Shown here: positions 12,351 to 64,000 of the stretch, one piece after another
Layout of the letters: each line of letters starts with the position of its first letter
How positions within the stretch are numbered: position 1 is the stretch's first letter
NCBI RefSeq assembly: GCF_000143415.4
Contig: NW_003314309.1
Coordinates: forward strand, 766,936 to 830,935
Reading direction: 5' to 3'
Source: Selaginella moellendorffii
Taxonomy: Eukaryota > Plantae > Lycopodiophyta
DNA length: 64,000 bases
Notes under the pieces: model-generated
Database searches by the model: none
What the model saw: only the letters and a program-made list of their open reading frames with translations
What the model was told of the DNA's origin: nothing
Made by a program: the position numbers and the translations under genes

Positions 12351-13035
12351 AATTTGTTGTAGTAATGCTTAGTTTGGATAATTATTCCTACTTATCAATC
12401 CAATTGATCAAATAAAGTTTATAATTATAAGCATGTTTGTAATTTATAGATGCAAGATTAATCTTATTGCATATCAACCCTTAGATGGTAGAATAAAATA
12501 GAATATATTAAAAAGTGTTTAATTTTTTGGTTTGCTTAAGCAAACCTATAGGGGGACTGGGATGGTATTGAATATACCTAGAATATATTTGGATATTCTA
12601 GGATATTCTACCATCTAACGGTTGTTATTCATTTAGATTAATTTTGTATTTATAATTTATAAACATGTTTATAATTTATAAACTTTCTTAAACCTTTTCT
12701 AGTATATTCTTTTTAATTCTACCATCTAATGGTTGATATGCAATAAAATTAATCTTGTATATATGAATTACAAACATGCTTATAATTATAAACTTTATTT
12801 GATCAATTGGATTAATAAGTAATAATAACACTAGTATTAAGCAAACCAAGCGTTGCTACATGCAACGCGTAGCAATTTATTGTTTATTTTATAAATTATA
12901 AACATGTTTATAAATTATAAATATAAAATTAATTTAAATGAATAAAAACCATTAAATGGTAAAATATCCTAAAATATTCAAGTATATTTTAGATATATTC
13001 ATTCATCTCAGTCCCCCCTTAAGCAAACCAAAAAT
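12351..13035 (-). mobile_element. Older antisense copy of the same element, split by the inner copy (12351-12520 + 12884-13035)
   Basis: 12401-12515 is the reverse complement of 12694-12819; 12525-12685 is the reverse complement of 12888-13035. Confidence 0.65.
12523..12880 (+). mobile_element. Non-autonomous DINE-1/Helentron-like element (inner copy)
   Basis: 13-bp subterminal IRs ttggtttgcttaa (12527-12539) / ttaagcaaaccaa (12837-12849); 5' palindrome ggtttgcttaagcaaacc; 3' GC stem-loop 12850-12875; T-rich flanks. Confidence 0.6.
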
Positions 13036-35049: not shown

Positions 35050-35620
35050 ACGATGGTAACCAAGGAGTGGAACTTTAACCCTTGGATATGTGGGTCAAGA
35101 GTAGCAGAGTGGAACCCAAGTTCAAGGCCTTTAGCGATTAAACAAAGAGATGGAGCTAAACTCCCAATTATGTAACTAAGGAGTATAAAAAACTAGAGCA
35201 TAGAACAACTCCCGAGTATATAGCCTAATGAGTGAAGGGACAAGAGCACGAAGTGACTCTCAAGCGTATAACCCAAAGAGTGAAAGGATAGAAGTACAGA
35301 GTGACTCCCAAGTGTACAATCCAAGGAGTGAAGGGGTAAGAGTACAAAAAAACATTAAAGTAGTCCTAAAGCTTCTAGCATCCTAGTACTAGGACCAATA
35401 TGTAAAATGGAACTAAATAAAGTTTTGTGTTATTTCATGGCCTAATGCGAGGATATGGATCCTCCAGCTAGTATGGTATGAAGCTTATGCTTAACTAGAA
35501 TACACTTTAAATTGGTTGATTATGCCTAACTTACTTACTATCCCTAATATACATTTAGAATCCCCTATAGCCAGCGCCCCCCCCCCTTCTAGAGGAACTC
35601 ATGCTTTAGGCTTTCACCAC
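35050..35620 (+). mobile_element. Degenerate LTR-like repeat with ~48-bp tandem units (35160-35345)
   Basis: Inverted match to 52180-52680; ends in C-run + atgctttagggctttcacc, like the young LTRs. Confidence 0.55.
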
Positions 35621-37451
35621 AATCCCAGAAGTTAGTTTTTGGGATAATCATGAAAACTTATTAAATAAAGAATGATGCTAAATTACATATTTAGATGTGA
35701 GAACAACATCATTGTATTCAGGACAATCTCTACATTTCATAGATATGCTAAACTAACAAATCTAAACACTTTCCATAAATAGCCAAATGAAACTAACACA
35801 TTAGGGAATGATAGCGAGAGTGTCTTAGTGGACACAGTAAGCTATCCCTTAGCAAATATTAAGGATTAAATTTAATATCATAGGGGTTTTTGTCAAACTA
35901 ATGCAAGATAGAGCAAAAGAAAACTAAAAGCCAGACTGAGTATGCTCAATAAGAAACACATAGGAGTTTTTACTTTAGATAAATGGTTATATATAAGTGG
36001 TTAAATATAGATGCTAAACTCAATTTACTAACACTTAAATAAGGGGGATTGAAAAAGGAACCAACAATATCGATCTTTTGCCGTTGTGACAGTAAAAAAA
36101 GAATGTCTAAAAGAATGAACTAGCCAATAAGTTATTTTCCATACCCATAGTCATATTTGCCACACAAATGGCCATTCCATGGATCATTCCTGAGTTCATA
36201 TTATATCTATCACAATATTCTTCATATAGATATAATTGTTGTCCATTAAAAAAATTTGGGTCTAGGATTTGGTTTTGGCAAGGATGGGGCAAAAGTATCC
36301 TCTTTATACTATGTGGAGAGGAAAGAGAATTAGAATTTTTCACTATTAGAATAATATTATACCTATCTTCACACTTCATCTAGAACTGCCAAATGGAGGG
36401 GCCTCTACTCTAAGTATGAAGCACAATTATGGCTTTAGAAATGGTGCTACAACAATCACACACCACTCTAAAGACCTCTTTTGGATTGCCCTTTTCCACC
36501 ACTTTGACTAGCAATGCACTTAAAAGTATTCTAGTTAATAAGGAGTATGATGATTACTTCACAATGGAGGAAGATCTAGATGTCTAAGGGCAAAAGTATC
36601 CTTTCTGTTGCATTTTGTTGAATATGTAATTGACTTACTTAATGTCCTCAATTGGTGGAGGAAGTGTTATGACTTGCAAAACAACCGGTGAGATTTGCCT
36701 AAATTAGCAAAGGAACTACAATCACTTGTAACACAATAGAAGGCTAAAGACGTGCAACAACCTAGGTGTTGGAATTGGAGGTGGTGTATTTAGGAATGCC
36801 TAAACCATCATCGGGTTTGGCTTATATATATTCAATATAATGTAATTATCTGTCCGCATGAAGGTTGCAATTATGGCAGTAGAATACAATAAGACAGAAA
36901 CAAAAACACTATAAGTTTTATTTGTATTATTGCACTTACCAACATCAAATTATGTCCAAGTGACTTGATGTAATTGGTACTAGAAGCACATATGTGCCAC
37001 AAACTCAAATGCAACATGTTGTCCCTTGCTGATGTGATTGCCATTTGAATTCATAACTAGAAAAAAATACTATAAGAATTAATATTTAAGAAAGAATTTT
37101 TTTTTTTATGGATAACTTTACTTATAATTGGTTCTTACTTTAAAGCTTTCTACATGCTTGCCTCTTATAGATACTTAGATTCCTTTGTTGGGTTGTGCTA
37201 AAATGCTCTTTCTTATTACATTTTCACAGCAAAACACACTCATAATAATTTGTAGCTAATTAAAAAGTATCATAGCTCTAGCAATATTAAAATACTAAAT
37301 TATCTCTCAACATAAAAATGATTAATGAATTTCATAGATGGGATAAAAGAACTTATAAGAGAATATAATATTGAAACAATATCTTTAAATGTCACTTTAC
37401 AATTTTATGCTTTATTTATATACAACCTAAATTATTAGTTTTAACATATTT

Positions 37452-40400
37452 TATGAGTGCATGGAATATGGAAATGGAATACAAAAATGTGCATATTAAT
37501 TAGCCTAAAAACCTTAGCTTATATACAAAAGCAAATGGTCCAAATTGAAACCAATCCAATGGCTACCAAAATCCCACTATACTAATATTAATATACGGCA
37601 TCAAAGATATACACCTGAACCTCACATCATCCCCCCTTGGAACGATGGAAGATTATCAGAGTCCTCTTGTGGATAGGCCAGGATCTGAAGGAATATCAAG
37701 AGGAGGCATAAGTGGATCTGTAAGTGGCATTAGTTGTTTCTGATCCTTTTGTATGAAGTGTTTTAGTTGTTGCGCACAATTTTTAGAGGATTGGCCTAAT
37801 GAATATCATGCTAAACCTTATAAACTTATTGTCTAACTTACCACAACACCTAATATAGTCTTTTCCACTCAGCAAGGAACCTCTTAGATAAACCACATAC
37901 GATAAAATTGGGAAAATAAACTAAAACTAAATTATCCATTTTGTACTTTGCACGTGGACGATGATGGGAGTTGTAGCACTGTTATTGTCCCACTTATATG
38001 CAGCCTATATGTTTGGTAAACTCTGCTTAGACAAGTGAAAAAATGCTCATCAAATACTAATCTCACAACTTAGTTTTAGCACCTCATGACAATTGTGAAG
38101 GTAAACCCAATTCTGTTAGTAATGTTGGATCATGACCATATAGGAGTGTTTATGGTGAAACACCAATAAAACTTGCACCCTTATGACATATACATACTGT
38201 AGAGACAGTAAATAACCATCATAATTCGAATACTGAAAGTTCATATACTTTGCGATCATCTCTTTAAAGGTTTGAACAAGCTATTCCACCAAACTGTCTG
38301 ATTATAGATGATAAACATTTATGAAAGTGTGGCATATCCTTAATTGAGATGTTAGAATGTGAAATGCTTTAACCATAAATATGGGACTATTATCCAAGAG
38401 AACCCACTTTGGACAGGAATGTTGGAACACCACTCAATTGATGAGGAAGTATCCAAAAATAGTTGTAGACATGCTAGTAAGAGCACTGAATTCCACCCAA
38501 CAAGTAAAGTAATCAAAAGCAATATGACATACTCATTGTTAGTAGTCGATTATGGAAAATGCCCCATTAAATCAATTGCCACTAACTCAAATAGATGGGA
38601 AACTACAGTTAACTCCAACCATCCTTCTTTAGCACGACAGGGAGTATTACGAGCTTGGCACCAAATGCAACTATGCACATACTAGATAACATCACATCGC
38701 ATTTCTGGCTAATATTGTAGCGCATGTGATCATGGGATGAGATTTGGATATACTGTCACCGTGGATCCTTGGAACCTTGGGGGATAAATGGGGATAAAAT
38801 AGCCACTAAGGGCTCTCTCATCAAGCAATTGCCCCTTTTCCAGTTGGCTTAAGGGGAGAGAGATAAGGTGCGGTACAGTTGGTATCAGAGCAAATGGCAT
38901 GGGTTCGATTCCCATTGATTAGTGGCTACTTAAAGTATAATATACCCTTGAGCAAGGTATATTCCTACCCCTAAATTTGAAATTATATGTATTGGGCATC
39001 CATACGTACATCCTTCCTCTTGTGTGGAGTATCCACAGACGAAAGTATCCACTGTGAGACTGCGGTATGGTAAATTTGAAATTATATGTATTGGGCATCC
39101 ATACGTACATCCTTCCTCTTGTGTGGAGTATCCACAGACGAAAGTATTCACTGTGGGACTGCGGTATGGGTGGATGACTAGTTGCCTCACATGGAATAGC
39201 TAGTCTACACAATGGAAGGATTGGTAGATTAAGTGCGGAAATGGAAGTGCTGGTTCCCTTTGGCTCAGTAGGGGTTGTTAGTCAATAGTCAATGAGGACA
39301 TTGACATCTCTGAAGGGGGGGTGAGTGCTGTGGGACTGCGGTACGGGTGGATGACTAGTTGCCTCACATGGAAAATGGAAGTGCTGACATGGAAAATGGA
39401 GGTGCTAGTCTACACAATGGAAGGATTGGTAGATTAAGTGCGGAAATGGAAGTGCTGGTTCCCTTTGGCTCAGTAGGGGTTGTTAGTCAATAGTCAATGA
39501 GGACATTGACATCTCTGAAGGGGGGGTGAGTGCTGTGGGACTGCGGTACGGGTGGATGACTAGTTGCCTCACATGGAAAATGGAAGTGCTGACATGGAAA
39601 ATGGAGGTGCTGGTTCCCCTTGGCATTGACATCTCTGAAAGGGGGGTGAGTGCTGTGGGACTGCGGTACGGGTGGATGACTAGTTGCCTCACATGGAAAA
39701 TGGAGGTGCTGACATGGAAAATGGAGGTGCTGGTTCCCCTTGGCTCAGTAGGGGTTGTTAGTCAATAGTCAATGAGGACATTGACATCTCTAAAGGGGGG
39801 GCGAGTGGAACCTTGGGCCACTAAAATAGCCACTAAGGGAAATCCCCTTTTCCAGTTGGATTAAGGGGAGAGAGATAAGGTGCGCTACAAATATAAAGTT
39901 TTGCATAGCTTCTCGTCACACAACAATGTCATATGCCCGCCTAAAACATGAGTATGAAGAAAGCATGAAATAAAGATCGAAGACACCACCAACCATAAAT
40001 GATCATTAGGATCCGTCTTCACAAAATAAAGAAGATTGTTCTTAAGATGAATATTGAGAATGTAAATGCTGAAATGGCAAGTCATTAGCAAGTGATGTAA
40101 GATTCTCATACCTATTGCAAAGACTTCAAATCCACAACTCAATCTTTTGAGTTTTATGAACCTCATCAAGAGAAGGTAAATCTTGTTTTGCACTTTGTGA
40201 ACACTAAACATCAAGTATAACAACTGCTAATGGCACAAAATCTTTGTCTAAAAAATCCATAAATACTAAAATAATAGGTTTGTAAGAAATATGAAAAGAG
40301 AGGGAAGAAGGAAGAGGAGCTCAAAAAAGGGCATCAGCATTAGCTATAAAACTCCCTGGGTGATGAACAATATCAAAATCATATAATGGAAGTTTCAAAG

Positions 40401-43400
40401 CCCACTAAGCAGTACGACTAACTAAGTTCTTCCATTTTAACAATGAAGTAACTACAACATAATTACCTTCTAGTAATGTTTAAGAACTATGTAGATATGC
40501 ATGAAGTTTTTTGAAACTCCAAATTACTACTAAACACTCCTTCTCTATCGTGGAATAGTTCACCTCCGTTAGTTGTAATGTACAGTTAATATATACAATA
40601 GGATGGTGCTAATTAGGCACACTTGGGCTCTTTGGCATGAACACTTCTCTAAGATCGATATCAAAAGCATCCACGTTCAAAATGAAAGGTCGAGTGTAAT
40701 CAGGATATGACAAAACTAGAGGAGTCATCAATAGCACTTTGAGATCTGTAAACGCCCATTCACAATCCATATATTAGATAAAAAACAATATTAACAACTT
40801 TAGTAACACTTGCAATGGTGTAATGTGATAAAAAATCTGATCAACAAATTGACCAAGATATTACACCTTGCCTAGAAAGTGTTGCATATTATTCACACAC
40901 TTTGAAGAAGGGAACTTTAGAACAGCTACAAGTTTGTCATGATCAACCTGCAAACCCTCACAAGAAATATAAAATTAAGATAAGTCATGTTCTTGGACCC
41001 AAATACACACTTTGATACTTTAAACCAACTTTTTATAGCCAATTCAACACTTTTCAAACATCATGGATATGTTCCTCCCATGTCCCCTTTAAGTGGATTA
41101 AGACATTATTAATGAAGCCAACAGTCACTTCCGGCATGTTGTAAATAACCTCGTCCATCATCCACTAGAAAGTTGCTAAAACAGTATTCAAACCAAATGA
41201 TATCATCAAGAACTTGTACAAACCAAATGATGTACGAAAAGTAGTCTTTGGAATATCTTCTTTGGCTATTGGAACTTGTCAATACCTAAAAGTTAGATCT
41301 AACTTGGTGCACTAATGACTTTTTTTAAGAGATCAGTAGTGTGAGGAAGAGGATACATATTGAGGATTGTCACTTCATTTAATAAACGATAGTTAATGCA
41401 GAAATAAATACTCCCATCAAACTTTGTCATAAGATGAGGTTTACACATCTAAGGACTCCGCAATTTTCAAATAACACCTTTTTCTAACATTTCTTTAATG
41501 TTTGTATGTAAAATCTTCATCTCTTTTGATGATTGATGACAAATAAGAACCCTGATTAGACAAGTATCCCCAGTTGGAATAGGATGACATATTGCAATCT
41601 TAGCCCTAGATGACAGGTTAAATTTAAAGAGATCAACATACTCTTTCATGAGTCGATCAACTACTGCAACACAAAAACCATCAAAGGGATTAGAAGAGGG
41701 AATAGAGAAATAAGATGTACATATAGAAAGAAGTAATGGGGAGATAAAAGTGATGGAAGTAGATGTAGAAGTAGAGGGACAAAGAGGAATAAAAGTGAGA
41801 GGAATGGAAGAAATATAAAAAGTATGAGACAATGAAAAGAGGCTTTAAAGTCACATTTAACATGATTGTGTCGCAACTAATACATACTAAGGATGAGGTC
41901 AAAAGTTTAACTTGACACCATTTGCAATGACTACAGCTCAAGCTCAAGATTGCCCACACGCACAATTAGGTCTACTTCATTTTGTGCACATGCGTGTGTA
42001 TGGTTGTTGCCATACATAATGAAAACTAGCTTTGCGGCATAATGTAAATGTAGACGGCAACGTGTGGCAACAAGCCAAGCAATAAAAGATAAACTCGAGC
42101 CTGTATTAACCAATATAGAGAGAATAATAGGAGACCTCTTGTTTTAATAATGAGCTTGGAAAATAAACATTAGATGAATTGATGCCAAGTGAACACTTGA
42201 TAATACTTTTGAAAGAAAGATGAAAGTGTCACTGACTTATTTGCACAAAAACCCTCCACTACTCACCTAATTCCCAAAAACATCTTGGTGCCCAAACTTT
42301 ATACTGCAGCAACACCAATAGAATGTTGTTGATGCCAAAGTCTCCATCTAGGAAATGAAGGTCACTAATCCGGAAAAAGTTGACAACACCAATAAATGTA
42401 ACCAACTTCATTACACGCTTAGCAGTAGACATCATGGCCACGACTACATCCTTGACCTTGTCCTTGAACTCGGAATATCAACCTTTATTGGAATAAGACC
42501 ATCTCCCACAAGAAGTGGAGCTGAAAGTGCAAAATGGAAAAGGTGACATCTAAGTTTATGCATAAGTTCTACAAAATTTTGATGAAGTGCTAGCCACAAC
42601 ATTCTTAGCTTGATCCGCTCTGATATATTTGGCTTCATATGAAGAAAGAGGCTTTGGAAACAAATGCCAAATTGCATCACTAATTCAAATGGCCCTTAAC
42701 GAAGACAATGTAATTGTTGGAAGGCATCATCACAATTGTTAGCATGTCCAAATGTGTGTTTAAAGACATTTGGAGAATACTCCAATCGTCACAAGTGGCT
42801 ACGCTCAAACTATTATACCACTACAGTGCCGTCCTTTTGAAACACATAGGAAACTCATGTAAACATAGAGCATCATCCTAAGAATGATATGTGACAATCA
42901 CTATGAAGTGATTTAACCAATGATATGCATCATCCTCAAAATTCCCACGAAAGAATCCAGCCGAATGCAAGGATTGACACTAAGAGCAATAGAAGTTGTA
43001 CCATGTGATGTGAATGCTGCCATTAATTGAGTTTGGTTGTTCAACAATAATCGCATAGCATTAAGTAATTACACCAACTGCTATTCTAAAGTCAAAGGAG
43101 GAAGAGATTGCTGCTCTACCATAAAGATGAATGAAAAAGAAAAAGCAAAAAACAAAAAAAAATGAAAAAAAAATTAGAAAGAAAGGGAGATCTAAACAAT
43201 GCAAAAGTTAAATTCAAACCAAAATCTTGAAAAGAAAGAACAAAAGAAATGAAATGAAAAATGTTAAATCTAAATGATGCAAAAGTTAGATCTAAATCAA
43301 AATTTCAAATCCAAGCACTTATCAAGGACAATTAAAGATGCCCCCCACCTTTACCAATGTGAGTGCATAAAATATGGCAAAAGAATACAAAAAATATACA

Positions 43401-52179: not shown

Positions 52180-52700
52180 GTGAAAGCATAAAGCATGTGT
52201 TGCTAGAGGGGGGGATGTATAGTAAGGATAGTGGGTAGGTCAAGTGGAGCATAATTTAGCTCCAATTTATATGCCTATCCTTGTTTTGCGTCCATCTTAG
52301 GTTTAACCTTAAATTCCATATCATATTAACTAATGAAGTACTATTAGACCACCAATATGCTAAAATAATGCCAAACTCTATTTGGTTTTATTTTGCATGC
52401 TAATCCTAACATTAAGATCCTACATGCTCTAAGATTGTTTTTATATTATTCTATGCTCCTATCTTTTTGCTTTTTGGGTTGTACATTTGGGAGTTATTCT
52501 ATGCTTTTGTCCCTTCACTTTTTGGGTTATACATTTGGGAATTGTCCTATGCTTGTGGTTTCTTACACTCCTTGGCTATATGCTCAGAAGTTAAGCTTTA
52601 TACTTTCATTCAATGGCTCAAGACCTTGAAACTTGAGTTCCACTCTATTGCCCTTATCAACCGGGTTTTACTTATTTATTCTCTATAAAACCATAAAGTG
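52180..52700 (-). mobile_element. Degenerate LTR-like repeat, second copy of the 35.0-35.6 kb family
   Basis: Reverse-complement match including the 48-bp units (52450-52560) and the ggtgaaagc..G-run end. Confidence 0.55.
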
Positions 52701-52879
52701 TAGTTTTGACATGCTCGTTGTTATCTATGTGGTCAAAGTCCTTGATAGGGAATTTGAGGGACTCAAGGAGGTACACAATCTGTCACTCATATATAAGGAA
52801 CCAACTCGCCGAGGTGTCGTAGGCTAAAGGAACCCTGAAAGCATGACCAAAATGACAAAGAGTTCATCGGATGGGACCA

Positions 52880-53140
52880 AGTCAAAGATCGAGTCCAAGA
52901 CCGACTCTGAGACCGAGTTCGAGATAGAGTCCGGAATCGAGTCCGAGGCCGACTCGGGGACCGAGTTCGAGACCGAGTTCGAGACGGAGTCCGAGATCCC
53001 AAATCGGGTCCGAGACCGAGTCCGAGGTCGAGTCCGAGGTCAGGTCTGAGATCGGGTCCGAGATCGAGTCCGAGATCGAGTCCGAGACCGAATCCGAAGT
53101 CGGATCCGAAATCGAGTCCGAGATCGAGCTAGAGACTAAG
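52880..53140 (+). repeat. CpG-rich hexamer array (ccgagt/tcgaga/ccgaga) in the LTR, followed by G18 at 53193-53210
   Basis: Present in all four LTR copies with variable copy number. Confidence 0.9.
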
Positions 53141-53319
53141 TCCAAATACTAATATGGGTCAAGGGGTGAAAGCCCAAAGCGTGCGTCTCCCAGGGGGGGG
53201 GGGGGGGGGGTTCCAAAAGTATAGTAGGGATAGTGAGGTCCAGGAACCAGTTTTGAAAGGACTCTCCAGTGGGGCTTCCAAACCGACTTGAGGTTGAGAC
53301 TGGGACTGAGGGGCCTTGG

Positions 53320-53373
53320 TGTAAGCTCCTGGGCTGGGTGACCTCCCGGGAAGTCCAAACTCAGGAGCTTACA
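53320..53373 (+). mobile_element. 54-bp TG..CA insertion carrying a 5S rRNA fragment (Cassandra-like mini solo LTR)
   Basis: TSD CTTGG (53315-19 / 53374-78); 12-bp TIR tgtaagctcctg/caggagcttaca; tgggtgacctcccgggaagtcc matches plant 5S rRNA; absent from sister LTRs at ~54.76 and ~58.0 kb. Confidence 0.8.
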
Positions 53374-54635
53374 CTTGGGTGGGAGTGAGCATAGACTTGG
53401 TTGGTGCCGGAGGGGCCATCCAAGGAAGTTCTCAAGAGCAGCTCCCACTCCCGAAAGGGAAACCGATTGTAGTGCTCCTGGCTCATGTGGAGTGGTGCCC
53501 CACTTGAGTACCATGCGGCTCATTGGTCCTCGCCCTCCCTAGGGGCTTGGGCCTTCCTTCGGGATGGAAGTGGGGGAGTAAAGGTACCCATACCGGGCTG
53601 CTAGGCCACGGTGTTTCGCCCTGGCATCCCGAAGCAAGCGTTGCACTCAAGACTTGGGATTTAGAGGGTCCAATGATCAAGTCTTGTGGTACCAAAGGAT
53701 GTTAGGAACCTGGAAGCTTGGTGTGCTTGGCTGCTTGTGTTTACGGGGAGTGTAGCCGAACCTTAAGTCCAGTTTAACCCGGGGAGGGGGATTGGGAGTG
53801 ATTTGGGAATTCGTGGATGGATGGCTAACACTTTGTTGCTTGTGTAGTGAGTAGCTGAAACCAAGTAGGAGCTGGTACCATAGGCGAGAACCTTAGCAAG
53901 GGAACTTAGCAAAAGCCAAGACAGTGTTGGATAAATAGACGAGGTAAGCTGGCAAATTGGAAAGGAAAAATTTGTGGCTTACAATTTGGTATCGGAGCCT
54001 TTTCCTCAGTTCTAGCGAAGGATAGAGGCGGATTGCTGGGAGATGGCAAAGGCGGGGCGTAAACGAACCAAGGCGAAGACGGAACCTCCGCTAGAGCTGG
54101 AGCCTCTGGTCGAACAAGAGGCTATGGATGAGGAATCCTTTCATGAGGATCATATAAGCCACAAATTTTTCCTTTCCAATTTGCTAGCTTACCTCGTCTA
54201 TCCGTCTAACACCGCCTTGGCCTTTGCTAAGTTCCCTTGCCAAGGTTCTCGCCTATGGTACCAGCTCCTACTTGGTCTCAACTACTCACTGCACGAGCAA
54301 CGGAGTGTTAGCCATCCATCCACGGATTCCCAAATCACTCCCAATCCCCCTCCCCAGGCTAGACTGGACTTAAGGTTCGGCTACACTCCCCACAAGCACA
54401 AGCAACCAAGCGCACCATGCTTCCAGGTTCCTAACATCCCTTGGTACCACAAGACTTGATCATGGGACCCTCTAAATCCCAAGTCTTGAGTGCAACACTT
54501 GCTTCGGGACGCCGGGGCGAAACACCGTAGCCTAGCGGCCCGGTATGGGTACCTCTACCCCCGCACTTCCATCCCGAAGGAAGGCCCAAGCCCCTAGGAA
54601 GGGCGAGGACCAATGAGCCGCATGGTACTCAAGTG

Positions 54636-54735
54636 NNNNNNNNNNNNNNNNNNNNNNNNNNNNNNNNNNNNNNNNNNNNNNNNNNNNNNNNNNNNNNNNN
54701 NNNNNNNNNNNNNNNNNNNNNNNNNNNNNNNNNNN
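54636..54735. other. Assembly gap (100 N)
   Basis: Run of n. Confidence 1.
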
Positions 54736-55977
54736 CCCCAGTCAAGTCCATGCTCACTCCCACCCAAGGCCCCTTGGTCCCAGTCTCAACCTCCAGTCAA
54801 TTTGGAAGCACCACTATAGAGTTCCTTCAAGACTACTTCCTAAACCTCGCTATCCCTACTATGCTTTTGGAACCCCCTGCAGCCCCCCCCCCCCCCCCCT
54901 GGGAGACGCACGCTTTGGGCTTTCACCCCTTGACCCATATTAGTACCTTGGACTAAACCTTGGACTTGGTCTTGGACCCGATTTCGGATCTCGGACTCCG
55001 TCTCGAACTCGGTCTCGAACTCGGTCCTCGAGTCGGTCTCGGACTCGATTCCGGACTCTATCTCGAACTCAGTCCTAGAGTCGGTCTTGGACTCGATCTT
55101 CGACTTGATCCCATCCGATGAACTCTTTGTCATTTTGGTCATGCTTTCGGGGTTCCTTTAGCCTACGACACCTCAGCGAGTTGGTTCCTTACAACTCCAC
55201 CACCCATAGAAGAAGTTCGATGCCCACATCGAACGTCTCTTTTTATCCTACGACTTGTTGACCATGTCTCCGGGGGCATCTCCCCACTTAGTAGTGTGCC
55301 TAAGTTAGCCTCCCTGGCCAAGAGCCCATGATAACGGAATATAGGTGTCCCTATACTCTTCACCTCACCACGCCCTAGTATAGGGTCGAGACTTGAACTC
55401 AGCCTTGCTTTACTAGGGGGTCGGGACTCAAACCCAACCTCCGTAGAATACATCTACAGATTCGACATCCCCGCAGGGAGTCGGGCGTAGCTCCCTACGC
55501 CTAGTCGACCTAGCTAACCCATGCTAATTAGCTTACCTTCGGCGCGCCTTCGGGTCCCAACATATGCCATTGCTCAACTTCTGAAATTGATACTTTTAAT
55601 TGAACTTTGCATAAGTACATAGAGTTCTGCCATGCAGAAATTCCTCCACTAGATCTCGCGCGTTCGCTAGGTTCTCCTCCGGTTCCCATGTTGCTTCGCA
55701 GTGTGGAAATCCTTTCCACTTCACATGGAACTCTCTCACCTCGCGTCCTTGTCGCTTGCTCTTGCGCGCATTGAGGATGGCCTCGACTTCGTATTCCTCC
55801 TCCCCTTGGATAACCTCAGGTAAAGGTCTTACTTGGTCCTTGCGAAGCGGATCCTCAAAATACGGCTTGAGTAAGTTCACGTGGAACACGGGATGCATCT
55901 TCCTCATCTCTCGAGGAAGTCGGAGACGGTAAGCCACTTTACCGATTCGAGCCTCAATCTCGTAAGGCCCGGCGAAC

Positions 55978-56029
55978 CTGCTTAAGGAACTCAAGATCAA
56001 TTCATTTACAAGAATACATGCATTTTTAC
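55978..56029 (-). other. Candidate 52-nt spliceosomal intron in the integrase GPY/F module (homologue starts at 62768 in element 1)
   Basis: AG|gtaaaa...ttccttaagcag|G; removal restores KLTQRFAGPYEIEARIGKVAYRLRLP. Confidence 0.8.
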
Positions 56030-58541
56030 CTTTGGGTCAACTTCCGGCTGATCCCACTTGGTAGATGTCGCAAACGACTCTCTACCAAAGTTGCTCGTGT
56101 AATGAGTAACTTTGAGTTAGGGACTAGATCACATACCTCAATTTGGACTTCACTCGACTTGATGGCTATATTGGCTCTGGCCTTTTTCGGGTAGGGACAT
56201 TCCCTCGAAAAGTGTCCCGTTTCACCGTAGTTGTAGCATACGTTGTTTCCCACGCTGCTATATGACTTGACCTTCTTATCCATGGGTTTGTCTCTTTTCG
56301 CTTGACTGCCCCACGTACTCGCTCGTTGGCCACCAGATTTGCCTTTCTGGAACCCCGAGGACTCATTTTTAGAGAAACTCTTCTTGAATTTCCCCCTGCT
56401 ATACATTCCTCTTGGTTTGGCCCCTTTGCTAAATGTGGATCCCGACCCCGTCGTGTTCCCCTTTCGCAGGTTATCGTTGAAATGCACCTTGATGGCCGCA
56501 TCCAACGCTTCCTTGTAGTTGGTCGGGTTCTAGCGCATCACCTCACCGCGAGCCCAGGTTTGCAAACCTGATATAAAGGCATGGAACGCATCCATATCCC
56601 CCATGTCCGTGACAAGTATCCTCTTTGCCATGAACCCATTCACATATTCCTGGATGGTTCCAGTCTGCTTCAGCCTACTCAGCTCATCTCTCAGATGCAA
56701 AGTGGCATTCGGAGGAACGTATGTTGCGTAGATCCTTGCCTTCATCATGTCTCAGGTGGCCACCGGTCCTTCGTTGGCCTCCGTTGTTCTCCACCAAGAC
56801 TTGGCATTATCTGCCAAGTATGGTTTTGCACATGGGACATTCTCCGAGCTCGGTAACCGCAACGCTCGGAAGTAATCCTCCATATCGTAAAACCAATCCT
56901 CCACAACCTTATAGTCGTTCACTCCCTTGAACACCGGTGGGGGCTTTGGTTTGTACTTGGGAACTGCCTGAGGGACTGATTCCACTTCGGTCTGTTCGAC
57001 CTTGTCTGGTTTTGCCTCAGTCCCTGCCGAAGGGTCTGCACCTTCTGCGCTGCCAGCATCTGCAGTCTTTCGCTTTTTCTTTCGCTTCTCATCACGCTTT
57101 AGCTTGTGTACGAGAGTCTCCAGCAGGGCATTGGTCGGTGCCAACTGTCCTTCTAGCACATCCAATCGAGCCTTGGATGACCGAACCTCACCACCGGACT
57201 CCTGTTTGGAAGTTTCCTCACTGGAGTCCTCCTCATGCAAAGATTCCTCATCCATAGCCTCTTGTTCGACCGGAAGCTCCAACTCTGGTGGAGGTTCCGT
57301 CTTTGCCTGGGTTCGCCCTACCCTTGCCATCTCCCAGCAATCCGCCTCTATCCTTCGCTAGAACTGAGGAAAAGGCTCTGATACCAAATTGTAAGCCACA
57401 AATTTTTCCTTTCCAATTTGCCAGCTTACCTCGTCTATCCGTCCAACACCGCCTTGGCCTTTGCTAAGTTCCCTTGCCAAGGTTCTTGCTTATGGTACCA
57501 GCTCCTACTTGGTCTCAGCTACTCACTGCACGAGCAACGGAGTGTTAGCCATCCATCCACGGATTCCCAAATCACTCCCAATCCCCCTCCCCGGGTTAGA
57601 CTGGACTTAAGGTTCGGCTACACTCCCCGCAAGCATAAGCAGCCAAGCACACCAAGCTTCCAGGTTCCTAACATCCCTTGGTACCACAAGACTTGATCAT
57701 GGGACCCTCTAAATCCCAAGTCTTGAGTGCAACACTTGCTTCGGGATGCCGGGGCGAAACACCGTGGCCTAGCGGCCCGGTATGGGTACCTCTACCCCCC
57801 CACTTCCATCCCGAAGGAAGGCCCAAGCCCCTAGGGAGGGCGAGGATCAATGAGCCGCATGGTACTCAAGTGGGGCACCACTCCACATGAGCCGGGAGCA
57901 CCGCAATCGGTTTACCTTTCGGGAGTGGGAGCTGCTCTTGAGCACTTCCTTGGATGGCCCCTCCGGCACCAGTCAAGTCCATGCTCACTCCCACCCAAGG
58001 CCCCTTGGTCCCAGTCTCAACCTCAAGTCGGTTTGGAAGCCCAACTGGAGAGTCCCTTCAAAACTGGTTCCTGGACCTCACTATCCCTACTATACTTTTG
58101 GAACCCCCTGCAGCCCCCCCCCCCCCTCTGGGAGACGCACGCTTTGGGCTTTCACCCCTTGACCCGTATTAGTATTTGGACTTAGTCTCTGGCTCGATCT
58201 CGGACCCGATTTCGGATCCGACTTCGGATTCGGTCTCGGACTCGATCTCGGACTCGATCTCGGACCCGATCTCGGACCCGACCTCGAACTCGACCTCGGA
58301 CTCGGTCTCGGACCCGGTTTCGGATCTCGGACTCCGTCTCGAACTTGGTCTCGAACTCGGACTCGAACTCGGTCCCCGAGTCGGTCTCGGACTCGATTCC
58401 GGACTCTATCTCGAACTCGGTCCTAGAGTCGGTCTTGGATTCGATTTTCGACTTGGTCCCATCCAATGAACTCTTTGTCATTTTGGTCATGCTTTCGGGG
58501 TTCGTTTAGCCTACGACACCTTGGTGAGTTGGTTCCTTACA

Positions 58542-61500
58542 GATGACTCCAGTGAGGAAACTTCCAAATAGGAGTTTGGTGGCGAGGTTCGGTCGTCCAA
58601 GCCTCGATTGGATGTTCTAGAAGGACAGTTGGCACAGACCAATGCCCTGCTAGAGACTCTCGTATGCAAACTAAAGCGTGACGAGAAGCGGAAGAAAAAG
58701 CGAAAGACTGCGGATGCTGGCAGCGTAGAAGGTGCGGACCCTTTGGTAGGGACTTAGGCAGAACCAAACAAGGTCAAACAGACCGAAGTAGAATCAGTCC
58801 CTCAGGCAGTTCCCAAGTACAAACAAAAGCCCCCACCAGTCTTCAAGGGAGTGAATGACTATAAGGTGGTGGAGGATTGGTTTTACGATATGGAGGACTA
58901 CTTCCGAGCGTTGCGATTACCGAGCTTGGAGAAGGTCCCATGTGCAAAACCATACTTGGCAGATAATGCCATGTCTTGGTGGAGGACAACGGAGGCCAAC
59001 GAAGGACCGGTGGCGACTTGGGACATGATGAAGGCGAGGATCCGTGCAACATACGTTCCTCCGAATGCCACTCTGCATCTAAGAGATGAGCTGAGTAGGC
59101 TGAAGCAGACTGGAACCATCCAGGAGTATGTGAATGGGTTCATGGCAAAGAGGATACTTGTCACGGACATGGGGGATATGGATGTGTTCCATGCCTTCAT
59201 ATCAGGTTTGCAAACCTGGGCTCGCGGTGAAGTGATGCGCTGGAACCCGACCAACTATAAGGAAGCATTGGATGCAGGTATCAAGGTGCATTTCAACGAT
59301 AACCTGCGAAAAGGGAACGCGACGGGGTCGGGGTCCACGTTTCATAAAGGGGCCAAACCGAGGGGAACATATAGCAAGGGGAAATTCAAGAAGAGTTTCT
59401 CTAAGAATGAGTCCTCGGGGTTCCGGAAAGGCAAATCCGGTGGCCAGCGAGCAAGTACGTAGGGGAGTCAAGCAAAAAGAGACAAACCCACGGATAAAAA
59501 GGTCAAGTCGTTTAGCAGCGTGGGAAACAATGTATGCTACAACTGCGGTGAAGCGGGACACTTTTTGAAGGAATGTCCCTACCCGAAGAAAGCCAGAGCC
59601 AATATCGCCATTAAATCGAGTGAAGTCCAAAATGAGGTATGTGATCTAGTCCCTAGCTCAAAGCTACTTATTACACGAGCAACTTTGGTAGAGAGTCGTT
59701 TGCGACATCTACTAGCCCTCCGAGGGAAGCTCGGAGGTAGCTTTGTTAAGATCCTTATTGACATTGGTGCTTCGGATAATTTTGTGGCTGCAGACATAGT
59801 CCGGCAAGCCAGACTAACAGTGTAGCGGCTGGGCAAACCAAGGACTATAGAGTTTGTTCAAGGTAGCCAAAGCACCGATGAGGTACTTCGACAAGCAAGA
59901 GTCGAAGTAGGGACTTGGAAAGTAGACATGGATTTCACCGTGTTGGACATGGCGGGATTTGACGTGATCTTCGGGATGGATTGGTTCAATCGGTTCGTGG
60001 TAGCCCTGCATGGACAAGGTAGGAACCTTGTGGTACTAGCGAATGCCCAAGGAAGAAGATCCAGGGTGGAGGCCCAGGATCTAAAGGTAGGGCAATGCAA
60101 GGCCAAAGATTCGTGCCTAAACCTGGTGTCCACGAGAGGACAACTCACTAAAGGGACAAAGGCTGCATTTTTGTGCTTACTCTCGGTGAGAAGTGATAAA
60201 AAGACAGGAACGGAAGAAGTACCTTTAGTGATCCAGCAGGTGTTGGACCAATTCCAGGATACCATGCCAGAGGAGCTACCGGCGGGGTTGCCCCCCGCAC
60301 GACCGATAGAACATAAGATTGAGCTGGTCAAGGGTGCTGAGGCAATGGTTCGTCCACCCTATCGTTTGAACGAAAAAGAACTCGTGAAGCTCAAGCGCCA
60401 ACTAGAGGAGTTGGTGGACAAAGGGTATGTTAGGTTGAGCAAATCGCCGTATGAGGCGCCGGTCCTATTTGTGAAAAAGAAAGATGGATCTATGCGCATG
60501 TGCATAGACTACCGGTTGCTCAACAAATATACAAAGAAGAACAAGTACCCTTTGCCAAGGATTGAGGACCTGTTTGATAGGTTGGGAAAAGCAAAATACT
60601 TCTCAAGGATTGACCTAAGGTCAGGATACTACCAGATTAGGGTAGCAGAGGAAGATGTCGAGAAGACAACTTGTCGAACGAGGTATGGGAGCTTCGAGTT
60701 TTTGGTGATGCCCTTCGGGCTATGCAATGCGCCGGCAACGTTTTCGGCGTTAATGAACCATATCTTTGTACCCTATCTGGATCACTTTGTGGTCGTTTAT
60801 ATTGACGACATCCTAATCTATAGCGAAACGCTAGAAGAGCATGCCAAACATTTGACGAAGGTGTTTGAGAAACTAAGGGAACACCAGCTATATGCTAAAG
60901 AGAGCAAATGTAACTTTGCTCAGCAAGAGGTAAAGTTTCTCGGGCATGTGGTGGGCAAGGATGGGCTCAAGGTGGACCCTGAGAAGGTCCAAGCGATCCA
61001 GGATTGGGAGCGACCATCGAATGTACACGAGTTAAGGGCATTCTTGGGGCTATGCAACTACTACCGAAAGTTTATTAGACACTATTCGAGAGTAGCCCTG
61101 CCCTTAACAGACCAAACGGGAAAAGGGAAGATGGTATGGACAGCGGAATGCGAGGCGGCATTTGTCCACCTCAAAGGGAAATTGAGGAAAGCTCCGGTGT
61201 TGGCATTACCAGATTTTGGTAAGGACTTTGAGGTAGAAATGGATGCTTTGGACTTTGCGTTGGGCGCAGTTTTGAAGCAGGATAACCATCCAGTAGCATT
61301 CTTCTCGAAAAAGTTGGACAAGGCTCAACGGAAGTGGCCTGCCCATGAGAAGGAATTGTTTGTGGTGGTCAAGGCGCTCAAGGAGTGGAGACACTACCTT
61401 GGGAGACACTTCAAGGTTTATACGGACAATGTGGCAACAAAACACTTTTTGTCACAACCTGACCTAAGGGGGAAACAGGGTCGGTGGGCCAATGCTTTGG

Positions 61501-63128
61501 CCGAGTTTGATTGTGAAATTCTGTACAAGCCTGGGAAGAGCAACATCGTGGCGGATGCGCTAAGTCGAAAAGCAAGCTTGAAGTTGGCGATATCCAGCGC
61601 AACAGCAATATTTTGGGATGATGTGTGGACAACATATGAGAACGATGGTCTAGCACAAGAAGTGTTGCTGCAGAATCTGGAGGCACGGGAAGCTCACCAA
61701 AGGGGTGAGCTACCAACAGAAGAGAAAACGGGCTATGTGGAACGCAATGGACTCATCTATTACAAGCAAACGAGGGTGTATGTCCCAGAAGGGGAACTAA
61801 GGAAGGTAGCCTTAGAGGAGTGTCATGATGGACCTCTTGCGAAACACGGCGGAGTGCCCAAGACGATGGGCTTACTCAAGAGGAAGTATCACTGGCCAAA
61901 TATGGCTAAGGACGTCCAAGACTATGTAAAGACATGTCCAACATATGGTCAAAGATGTGACTAAGGCTACTGGGGGCTTGTTGCAAAATCCCAATTCCAG
62001 ATCGTCCGTGGAAATGTCTTACGATGGACTTCATCACGGGACTACCCCCAAGCGAGGGGTTCGATGCGATATTTGTGGTGGTGGATCGATTTTCGAAGAT
62101 GGCACATTTCATACCCACCACAACGGAAGTGGATGCGGAAGGTGTGGCGAAGCTGTTCTTTGAGCAAGTGGTTCAACTGCGGGGAAGGCCAGAAGAGATT
62201 ATCTTAGATCGAGATAAAATCTTCACCAGTAGGTTCTGGAGAACCCTCCTGGAACAGTATCGCACCAAGTTGAAATTTAGCATAGCCTATCACCCACAGA
62301 CAGGTATGGGGTATTAAGTCAAGTTGATGGCACTAACACTTCTTGACAGACGGACAAACGGAAAGGGTGAATAGGCAGCTAGAGGATTATTTGTGATGCT
62401 ATGTCTCAGGAGACCAGACCGATTGGGTAAGTCATTTGGGACTTGTGGAAATGTGTTATAACAACTCACCACATTCAAGCATCGGGGTGAGTCCATGGGA
62501 AGTCATCAATGAGCGAGCTATTGAAGGTCCTATGGAACTCGGCGTGGCCGAGTATCATGGAGAGTTACCCGCAGTGGAGGCATTCACAGCGGAAAGACTC
62601 AACATTTGGAATCTAGTGAGGGATTCCTTGGAACGGGCTCAACAAAGGCAAACCAAGTACGCGAACCAGAAGCGTCAGGACGTAGAGTTCCAAGCTGGGG
62701 AGAAGGTGTGGCTAAACACCAAGAACCTCAGGCTACCAAGTGGGATCAGCCAGAAGTTGACCCAAAGGTAAAAATGCATGTATTCTTGTAAATGAATCGG
62801 TCTTGGGTTCGCGGGGCCTTATGAGATTGAGGCTCGAATCGGTAAAGTGGCTTACCGTCTCCGACTTCCTCGAGAGATGGGGAAGATGCACCCCGTGTTC
62901 CACGTGAACTTACTCAAGCCGTATTTTGAGGATCTGCTTCGCAAGGACCAAGTAAGGCCTTTACTTGAGGTTATCCAAGGGGAAGAGGAATACGAAGTCG
63001 AGGCCATCCTTAATGCACGCAAGAGCAAGCGACAAGGACGCGAGGTGAGAGAGTTCCATGTGAAGTGGAAAGGATTTCCACACTGCGAAGCAACATGGGA
63101 ACCGGAGGTGAACCTAGCGAACGCGTGA
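58542..63128 (+). pseudogene. Disrupted gag-pol of element 1
   Basis: Stops at 58755, 59460, 59823, 62394 and 63126; frameshifts near 61945 and 61990; RT-RNase H open 59928-61964. Confidence 0.9.
62304..62349 (+). other. Candidate 46-nt spliceosomal intron in the integrase core
   Basis: AG|gtatgg...ctaac...ttcttgacag|AC; removal restores YHPQTDGQTERVNRQLEDYL in frame. Confidence 0.8.
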
Positions 63129-64000
63129 GATCTAGTGGAGGAATTTCTGCAAGGCAGAACTCTATGTACTTATGCAAAGTTCAATTAAAAGTATCAATTG
63201 GTGAAGTTGAGCAAATATGTTAGGACCCAAAGGCACGCCAAGCGTAGGGAGCTACGCCCGACTCCCTGCGGGGATGTCGAATCCGTAGACGTATTCTATG
63301 GAGGTTGGGTTCAAGTCCCAACCCCCTAGTAAAGCAAGGTTGGGTTCAAGTCCCAACCCCATACTAGGGCGTGGTGAGGTGAGGAGTATAGGGACACTTA
63401 TATTCCGTTGTCATGGGCTCTTGGCCGGGGAGGCTAACTTAGGCACACCGCTAAGTGGGGGGATGCCCCCGGAGACATGGTCAACAAGTCGTAGGATCAA
63501 AAGAGAGACGTTTGATGTGGGCATCGAACTTCTTCTATGGGTGGTGGAGTTGTAAGGAACCAACTCGCCGAGGTGTCGTAGGCTAAAGGAACCCCGAAAG
63601 CATGACCAAAATGACAAAGAGTTCATCGGATGGGACCAAGTTGAAGATCGAGTCCAAGACCGACTCTGAGACCGAGTTCGAGATAGAGTCCGGATTCGAG
63701 TCTGAGGCCGACTCGAGGACCGAGTTCGAGACCGAGTTCGAGACGGAGTTTGAGACCGAGTTCGAGACAGAGTCTGAGATCCGAAATCGGATCCGAGACC
63801 GAGTCCGAGGTCGAGTCTGAGGTCGGGTTCGAGATCGGGTCCGAGATCGAGTCCGAGATCGAGTCCGAGACCGAATCCGAAGTCGGATCTGAAATCGAGT
63901 CCGAGATCGAGCTAGAGACTAAGTCCACATACTAATACGGGTCAAGGGGTGAAAGCCCAAAGCGTGCGTCTCCCAGTGGTGGGGGGGGGGGGGGGGGGGC

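Follow-up and report, generated by a model that had tools for sequence, protein, structure and literature searches.

Loss of introns upon copying is the classic signature of retrotransposition. In the available part of a 2025 review, plant LTR elements are described as generally intron-less, with Ogre and EVD as exceptions (PMC12786077). Ogre, in the available text, contains an intron between gag-pro and RT which is spliced in some transcripts and whose removal is needed for the downstream domains to be translated (PMC6317226). Splicing makes Gag in EVD and BARE1, the EVD intron removing the protease, according to the available portions of the reports (PMC5580714, PMC12786077). The available sections on foamy viruses place the major donor in the R region of the LTR, with Pol made from a spliced mRNA (PMC5035957, PMC7828637), and describe RNA structure that can block U1 (PMC3694450, PMC12789967). 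Penelope-like elements keep introns, and the 5′ UTR intron of Chlamys-3_cRei crosses the boundary between terminal repeat and body, as far as the available text describes it (bioRxiv 10.1101/2021.04.23.441226).

SM1-Galahad is a chromovirus of the Galadriel clade from Selaginella moellendorffii, present in hundreds of copies of which none was found intact (Novikov et al. 2012, PMC3350952). Its LTRs are longer than 1 kb and contain poly-G tracts and TG..CA ends, accompanied by a tRNA-Met primer binding site (PBS) and a polypurine tract (PPT) (PMC3350952). ORF1 of 3,885 bp ends in the integrase core and is followed by two short frames, the first of 316 bp and the second, which contains the chromodomain, of 309 bp (PMC3350952, section 2.1). 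The integrase frame was described by its authors as broken and an intron was not reported; the terms "intron" and "splic" gave 0 matches in the main text of that paper (PMC3350952).

The window (the whole stretch of 64,000 nucleotides that was analysed) was found to be gene-dense plant DNA containing PPR, F-box, lipoxygenase and other genes, followed from 52792 to its end by two members of a single Ty3/gypsy family, of which element 1 lies on the plus strand and element 2 on the minus strand. Element 2 is nested in the gag of element 1 between the halves of a 5-bp target duplication (54148-54152 / 58542-58546) with one mismatch, and both elements are decayed. The features are given below.

52792..53983, plus strand: 5′ LTR of element 1, 1,192 bp, with 12-bp tandem repeats and a poly-G tract; the first base pair is decayed and the LTR ends in CA
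53944..53982, plus strand: predicted LTR-terminal hairpin, donor positions +1 to +6 (53944-53949) pairing with 53977-53982
53944..54009, plus strand: candidate leader intron of element 1, 66 nt, or 72 nt with the TAG at 54015
53987..53998, plus strand: PBS, presumed tRNA-Met type
53999..54015, plus strand: pyrimidine tract and two AG acceptor candidates (54009, 54015)
54043..54152, plus strand: start of gag of element 1, broken by element 2
54153..55193, minus strand: 3′ LTR of element 2, with a 100-N gap at 54636-54735; carries the donor, GT at 54192
55978..56029, minus strand: predicted integrase intron 2 of element 2, 52 nt, GT-AG, inside K-L-x-x-R-F-x-G-P-Y
near 56061-56064: internal deletion of element 2, from the protease start to the integrase C-terminus
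57364..57429, minus strand: candidate leader intron of element 2, extending to 57358 with the second AG
57390..58541, minus strand: 5′ LTR of element 2, 1,152 bp
58547..63187, plus strand: remaining gag-pol of element 1, decayed, with stops and one frameshift
62304..62349, plus strand: predicted integrase intron 1 of element 1, 46 nt, GT-AG, with CTAAC at -14 and an in-frame stop, inside H-P-Q-T-D-G-Q
62768..62806, plus strand: predicted integrase intron 2 of element 1, its acceptor end deleted
63551..64000, plus strand: 3′ LTR of element 1, continuing past the window end, with a polypurine tract just before it

Element 1 was found to contain gag, zinc knuckle, protease, RT, RNase H and integrase domains and a C-terminal chromodomain, which is the chromovirus order PR-RT-RH-IN followed by a C-terminal chromodomain. 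Purine tracts precede 63551 in element 1 and 55193 in element 2. The PBS at 53987-53998 is taken by us to be of tRNA-Met type, as in the description of SM1-Galahad. Counted from the gag ATG, the first stop in integrase is reached after about 3,880 nt, and frames of 318 bp and 309 bp follow, PF00385 (chromodomain) being found in the last, 309-bp frame. We infer that the element is SM1-Galahad-like, both the name and the organism being taken from the match to the published description rather than from a sequence comparison; the Galadriel clade name likewise rests on PMC3350952. In an RT-RH tree the element grouped with plant elements (support 0.97), none of which bears a clade label, and its position was different in a midpoint-rooted tree. 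The family is high-copy, as 45,346 contigs of the DNA run X1 were aligned on a 2.9-kb stretch, a figure which is not itself a copy number. In protein searches the nearest family piece was a 156-aa gag fragment (P0162) and no family member was found to span either integrase junction. Among viral contigs a single-protein search gave no relative and alignment gave one distant locus, and a PBS-pattern scan of the same contigs gave 100 matches, none with RT. A pattern scan of genome contigs gave three matches, none with RT, which were rejected as chance, and Rfam and tRNA searches gave 0 matches.

Other repeats were also observed. A 54-bp insert at 53320-53373, present in the 5′ LTR of element 1 only, was found to contain 10-bp inverted ends with a TG start and a CA end, as in LTR termini, and is flanked by a 5-bp target duplication; it may represent a solo LTR from a tiny non-autonomous element that relies on the same integrase. 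A small element at 38755-39889, without a long ORF, looks like a TRIM: its terminal repeats are short, a tRNA-Met PBS is present at 38880, and tandem repeats of 99, 120 and 205 bp occur internally. Two decayed stretches (35258-35636 and 52200-52540) resemble the LTR poly-G region and each other (71% inverted match) and are read as an older related family. A decayed RT was found at 40267-41532 on the minus strand, and AT-rich nested inverted repeats with arms of 114-141 nt (90%) at 12382-13001 are MITE-like.

The integrase frame was found to be interrupted by two short inserts. Alignments obtained by tblastn with intact homologs break or contain gaps at both positions. The H-P-Q-T-D-G-Q motif is unbroken in 51 of the 80 related loci and in 63 of 120 homologous proteins, and the remaining loci and proteins may not reach the motif. 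P0312, the nearest relative of full length, reads as one frame of 1,578 aa. By frame logic both inserts would be introns. The in-frame stop of intron 1 comes ahead of the glutamate in the catalytic D,D-35-E triad, and no working integrase is therefore predicted from unspliced RNA. The inserts look family-wide, since three frames of matching size were found in the published reconstruction from many copies (PMC3350952). Because these GT-AG inserts lie within motifs that are continuous in relatives, a high-copy family must probably splice to make its integrase, yet it retains the introns. With an integrase that appears to depend on splicing, the survival of the introns needs to be accounted for; an intron which removes the PBS would be a simple answer, made plausible by their retention.

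Such an intron had been proposed for the leader by an earlier sequence-only reading, and the landmarks on which it relied were confirmed at their positions. The donor GAG|GTAAGC of element 1, with its GT at 53944, lies inside the LTR, which ends in CA at 53983. It is followed by a branch-like CTTAC with its A at 53981 (-29 from the acceptor), the PBS, a tract with 9 of 10 pyrimidines ahead of the CAG ending at 54009, a TAG ending at 54015 and the gag ATG at 54043. The same layout was found on the minus strand in element 2, with GT at 57429, AG ends at 57364 and 57358 and ATG at 57330, and the 3′ LTR of element 2 also contains the donor (GT at 54192). The signals of element 2 are not independent support, as both copies belong to one family. 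The donor GT, branch motif, pyrimidine tract and YAG occur in U2-type order and spacing, as judged by consensus splice motifs rather than a trained model. The candidate intron covers the entire PBS together with the 40 nt at the end of the LTR, and in element 1 no ATG was found inside the interval or between the acceptor and the gag ATG. The T content is 0.30 in the leader interval, 0.15-0.16 in its flanks, and 0.30 and 0.37 in the integrase inserts. The length of 66 nt, short like that of the integrase inserts (46 and 52 nt), was counted for a leader intron.

From the donor to the ATG, 1 of 105 sites was found to differ between elements 1 and 2 against 6.9 expected with methylatable sites allowed for (Poisson P 0.008). 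This conservation was counted for a leader intron, but it shows constraint rather than its cause, and a priming region is expected to be equally conserved. A separate acceptor-like site was found within the LTR at 53825-53847 (57548-57526 in element 2), with CTAAC about 21 nt ahead of the AG. It scores below the leader acceptor, has a possible donor at 53584 or 57789, and could belong to a further 5′ UTR intron removing upstream ATGs.

The chance occurrence of the leader signals was estimated with a donor threshold of at least 7 of 9 matches to CAG|GTAAGT and an acceptor threshold of at least 8 of 10 pyrimidines ahead of YAG, both set after the site was seen. Of 100-nt windows, 4-10% contain a threshold donor, as do 8.8% of 2,000 shuffled versions of the 100 nt preceding the PBS, and a threshold acceptor is present in 1-8% of matched windows; the presence of both in place is therefore an event of less than 1%, on post hoc thresholds. 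The 7-mer AGGTAAG is not enriched in the window (8 seen vs 6.95 expected). The donor at 53944 is the only one of threshold strength in 1.36 kb of LTR and leader, and the sense strand of element 1 contains only four acceptors of that strength, two of them at 54009 and 54015. The 16 control tRNA-Met PBS sites, 15 from the 80 related loci and one from the small element in the window, are few and several are kin; a donor was found in 0 of 16, an acceptor in 1 of 16 and both in none. The controls, all lacking the pair of signals, include L101, L102 and L109, kin elements of the same RT clade.

The core of the donor is not independent of a predicted hairpin, since GTAAGC at 53944-53949 is exactly complementary, in reverse, to the LTR attachment end at 53977-53982, which also contains the branch-like motif. 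This structure was missed by the sequence-only reading and offers a real rival to it, in which there is no leader intron at all. GTAAGC would then be the 5′ arm of a hairpin for primer loading or packaging, the pyrimidine run a stem arm behind the PBS and the resemblance to splice sites a by-product of the CTTACA end of the LTR, and the integrase introns would persist otherwise, for example through packaging of unspliced RNA only. This account is considered unlikely, though not lightly dismissed. The hairpin was predicted at -13 kcal/mol, with a z of -3.3 for the 56-nt fold (0 of 200 shuffles), and the pairs between donor and LTR end have a probability of about 1.0 in 60-nt and 300-nt contexts in every copy folded. 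The LTR end is paired as strongly in 2 of the 16 controls (L107 and L112) and partly in several others, so a hairpin of this kind requires no intron and is not specific to this family. The same pair of terminal motifs was found in the 54-bp insert at 53320-53373, with neither a PBS nor an acceptor role, and the sole contig crossing the leader site is unspliced.

The predicted hairpin could thus account for the donor core without splicing, but it leaves two signals unexplained. One is the exon-side AG of the donor, as its A and G are unpaired in the long-context folds (0.02-0.16), one 56-nt fold also taking the exon-side bases into the stem. The other is the acceptor 11 nt behind the PBS, which is stronger than the acceptors of both integrase inserts. 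The joint presence of donor and acceptor in 0 of 16 controls also argues against structure as the only cause, as do the partners of the pyrimidine tract, which is predicted to be paired but with partners that change between the two copies in 300-nt folds. The proposal that an intron excises the U5 end and the PBS therefore stands in part: the anatomy fits a short U2-type intron and the frame-breaking integrase inserts provide a motive, but the donor and branch bases are also the arms of a predicted hairpin. Splicing from 53944 to 54009 or 54015 is regarded as somewhat probable.

Reads were aligned on 55200-58100 from four (X1, X16, X22 and X23) of the 24 listed runs. From about 12% of each of the raw RNA runs, 63 reads of X22 and 27 of X23 were placed, most of them in a single LTR fragment and with zero depth at 57334-57527, and raw RNA depth over integrase intron 2 is below 1x. 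In run X16, which is RNA only by guess, one contig of 806 nt spans the donor, PBS and acceptor of element 2 unspliced. Two further contigs enter integrase intron 2, also unspliced, so that X16, which has no positive control, may represent unspliced RNA or DNA carry-over. In the DNA run X1, the 15 joints listed out of 86 include none at which the leader or intron 2 is exactly removed, a weak negative as some joints are uncounted. No spliced junction was seen in these reads, by which splicing is neither shown nor excluded. The LTR fragment, at 57566-57921, was covered at 10-20x by X22 and X23 reads flanked by unrelated sequence; splicing was rejected for it as its ends are not GT/AG, and it is read as an LTR piece within a transcript made elsewhere in the genome.

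The donor may also be read as a U1 site for poly(A) control or as a long-range splice donor, which is considered very unlikely. A donor in the LTR upstream of the PBS which can be buried by structure is found in foamy viruses, in the available part of PMC3694450, and the donor here is present in both LTRs. However, at 40 nt from the LTR end it more likely lies in U5, presumably downstream of the poly(A) site, and the single acceptor of equal score downstream in element 1 is in the 3′ UTR.

The interval 53944-54009 is best explained as a leader intron that is spliced from part of the RNA of an SM1-Galahad-like chromovirus and would sort that RNA into two pools, a reading given slightly less than an even chance. 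The spliced RNA would be without the primer site and the final 40 nt of the LTR. With the leader and the two predicted integrase introns removed it would serve as messenger only, encoding full Gag-Pol with integrase and chromodomain. The predicted hairpin would bury donor and branch point in other molecules, which would stay unspliced, keep the primer site and act as the reverse-transcription template, carrying all three introns into new copies. The intron itself was probably derived from the hairpin, because an LTR with a CTTACA end has GTAAG in its complement. That the leader intron acts as a lock on copying is likewise placed just short of evens. Coupling would be required for it, as molecules which retain the leader must retain the integrase introns too. 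The sequence-only reading had held that spliced mRNA cannot be copied; the interval does cover the PBS and the attachment end, but the statement was too strong, as it needs coupling to integrase splicing, and spliced RNA must also stay out of particles, where it could otherwise donate its joined exons by template switching. The buried donor speaks against tight coupling, since the leader would then be the least spliced of the introns, contrary to the need of a lock.

The same feature favours a reading in which the leader is spliced but is no lock, being an ordinary 5′ UTR intron for expression or export which is independent of the integrase introns, these being kept by selective packaging or by selection against intron-free copies. 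It is judged rather improbable. A donor buried in a hairpin predicts leaky splicing, and Ogre and EVD retain introns with partial splicing, no PBS removal being described in the available parts of the reports (PMC6317226, PMC5580714). Against it, uncoupled splicing should give integrase-spliced RNA which bears the PBS and hence intron-free DNA copies, and these are suggested neither by the published reconstruction (PMC3350952) nor, weakly, by the listed X1 joints.

The observation itself is thus confirmed, and its interpretation as a PBS-removing intron is plausible, though unproven and faced with a structural rival. In the wider picture, offered tentatively and with a little less assurance than the sorting of RNA, a tRNA-primed LTR element would be expressed like a normal gene. 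Its integrase would need two introns removed from the catalytic and C-terminal regions, and a third, made from hairpin arms, would strip the primer site and the attachment end from every translated RNA, the hairpin toggling between genome and messenger. If true, a hairpin switch would let a retroelement reach hundreds of copies with its introns intact. Annotation is affected as well, since a family published without an intact copy may prove intact when introns are permitted, and a like arrangement could be hidden in other "broken" LTR families. Even with a leader that is never spliced, an explanation would be needed for the integrase introns.

Two further donor-like sites were observed in the elements. 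GAG|GTATGT at 59637 (56136 in element 2) lies between the gag zinc knuckle and the protease in both copies, where the frame is continuous without splicing, and is a candidate donor for an EVD-like splice that gives Gag only. The site at 55536-55501 on the minus strand, in the 3′ UTR of element 2, is missing from element 1; intron loss was rejected as the cause, since the 38-nt deletion is not at GT..AG ends.

In the literature outside Repbase and subscription papers, no report of introns in the integrase or spanning the PBS was found for a plant LTR element, and no PBS-removing intron was found for any LTR retrotransposon. SM-Tcn1 was rejected as the identity of the element, being without a PBS in the available part of its description (PMC2864245). 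The available foamy virus reports share with this locus a donor that lies in the LTR ahead of the PBS and, as would hold here, Pol from a spliced mRNA and a structure able to block U1 (PMC5035957, PMC3694450). In these reports the donor in R joins distant acceptors, whereas the candidate here is 66-72 nt long, ends before gag and would leave the whole gag-pol frame; foamy viruses are retroviruses and the element a plant Ty3/gypsy, so the likeness is an analogy only. Ogre, EVD and BARE1 share the alternative splicing of element RNA (PMC6317226, PMC5580714, PMC12786077). In the available text the Ogre intron separates gag-pro from RT and that of EVD takes out the protease, whereas the candidates here lie over the PBS and within the integrase, positions not described in the available parts of those reports (PMC6317226, PMC5580714, PMC12786077). 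Penelope-like elements such as Chlamys-3_cRei differ in having no tRNA priming, no integrase and an unrelated RT class, and the reason for intron retention is stated as unknown in the available text (bioRxiv 10.1101/2021.04.23.441226). SM1-Galahad is matched in the LTRs of 1,192 and 1,152 bp with poly-G tracts, the TG..CA ends, the tRNA-Met PBS, the PPT and the three frame sizes, whereas here two introns are taken to cause the frame breaks of the published element, and an additional intron is proposed across the PBS.
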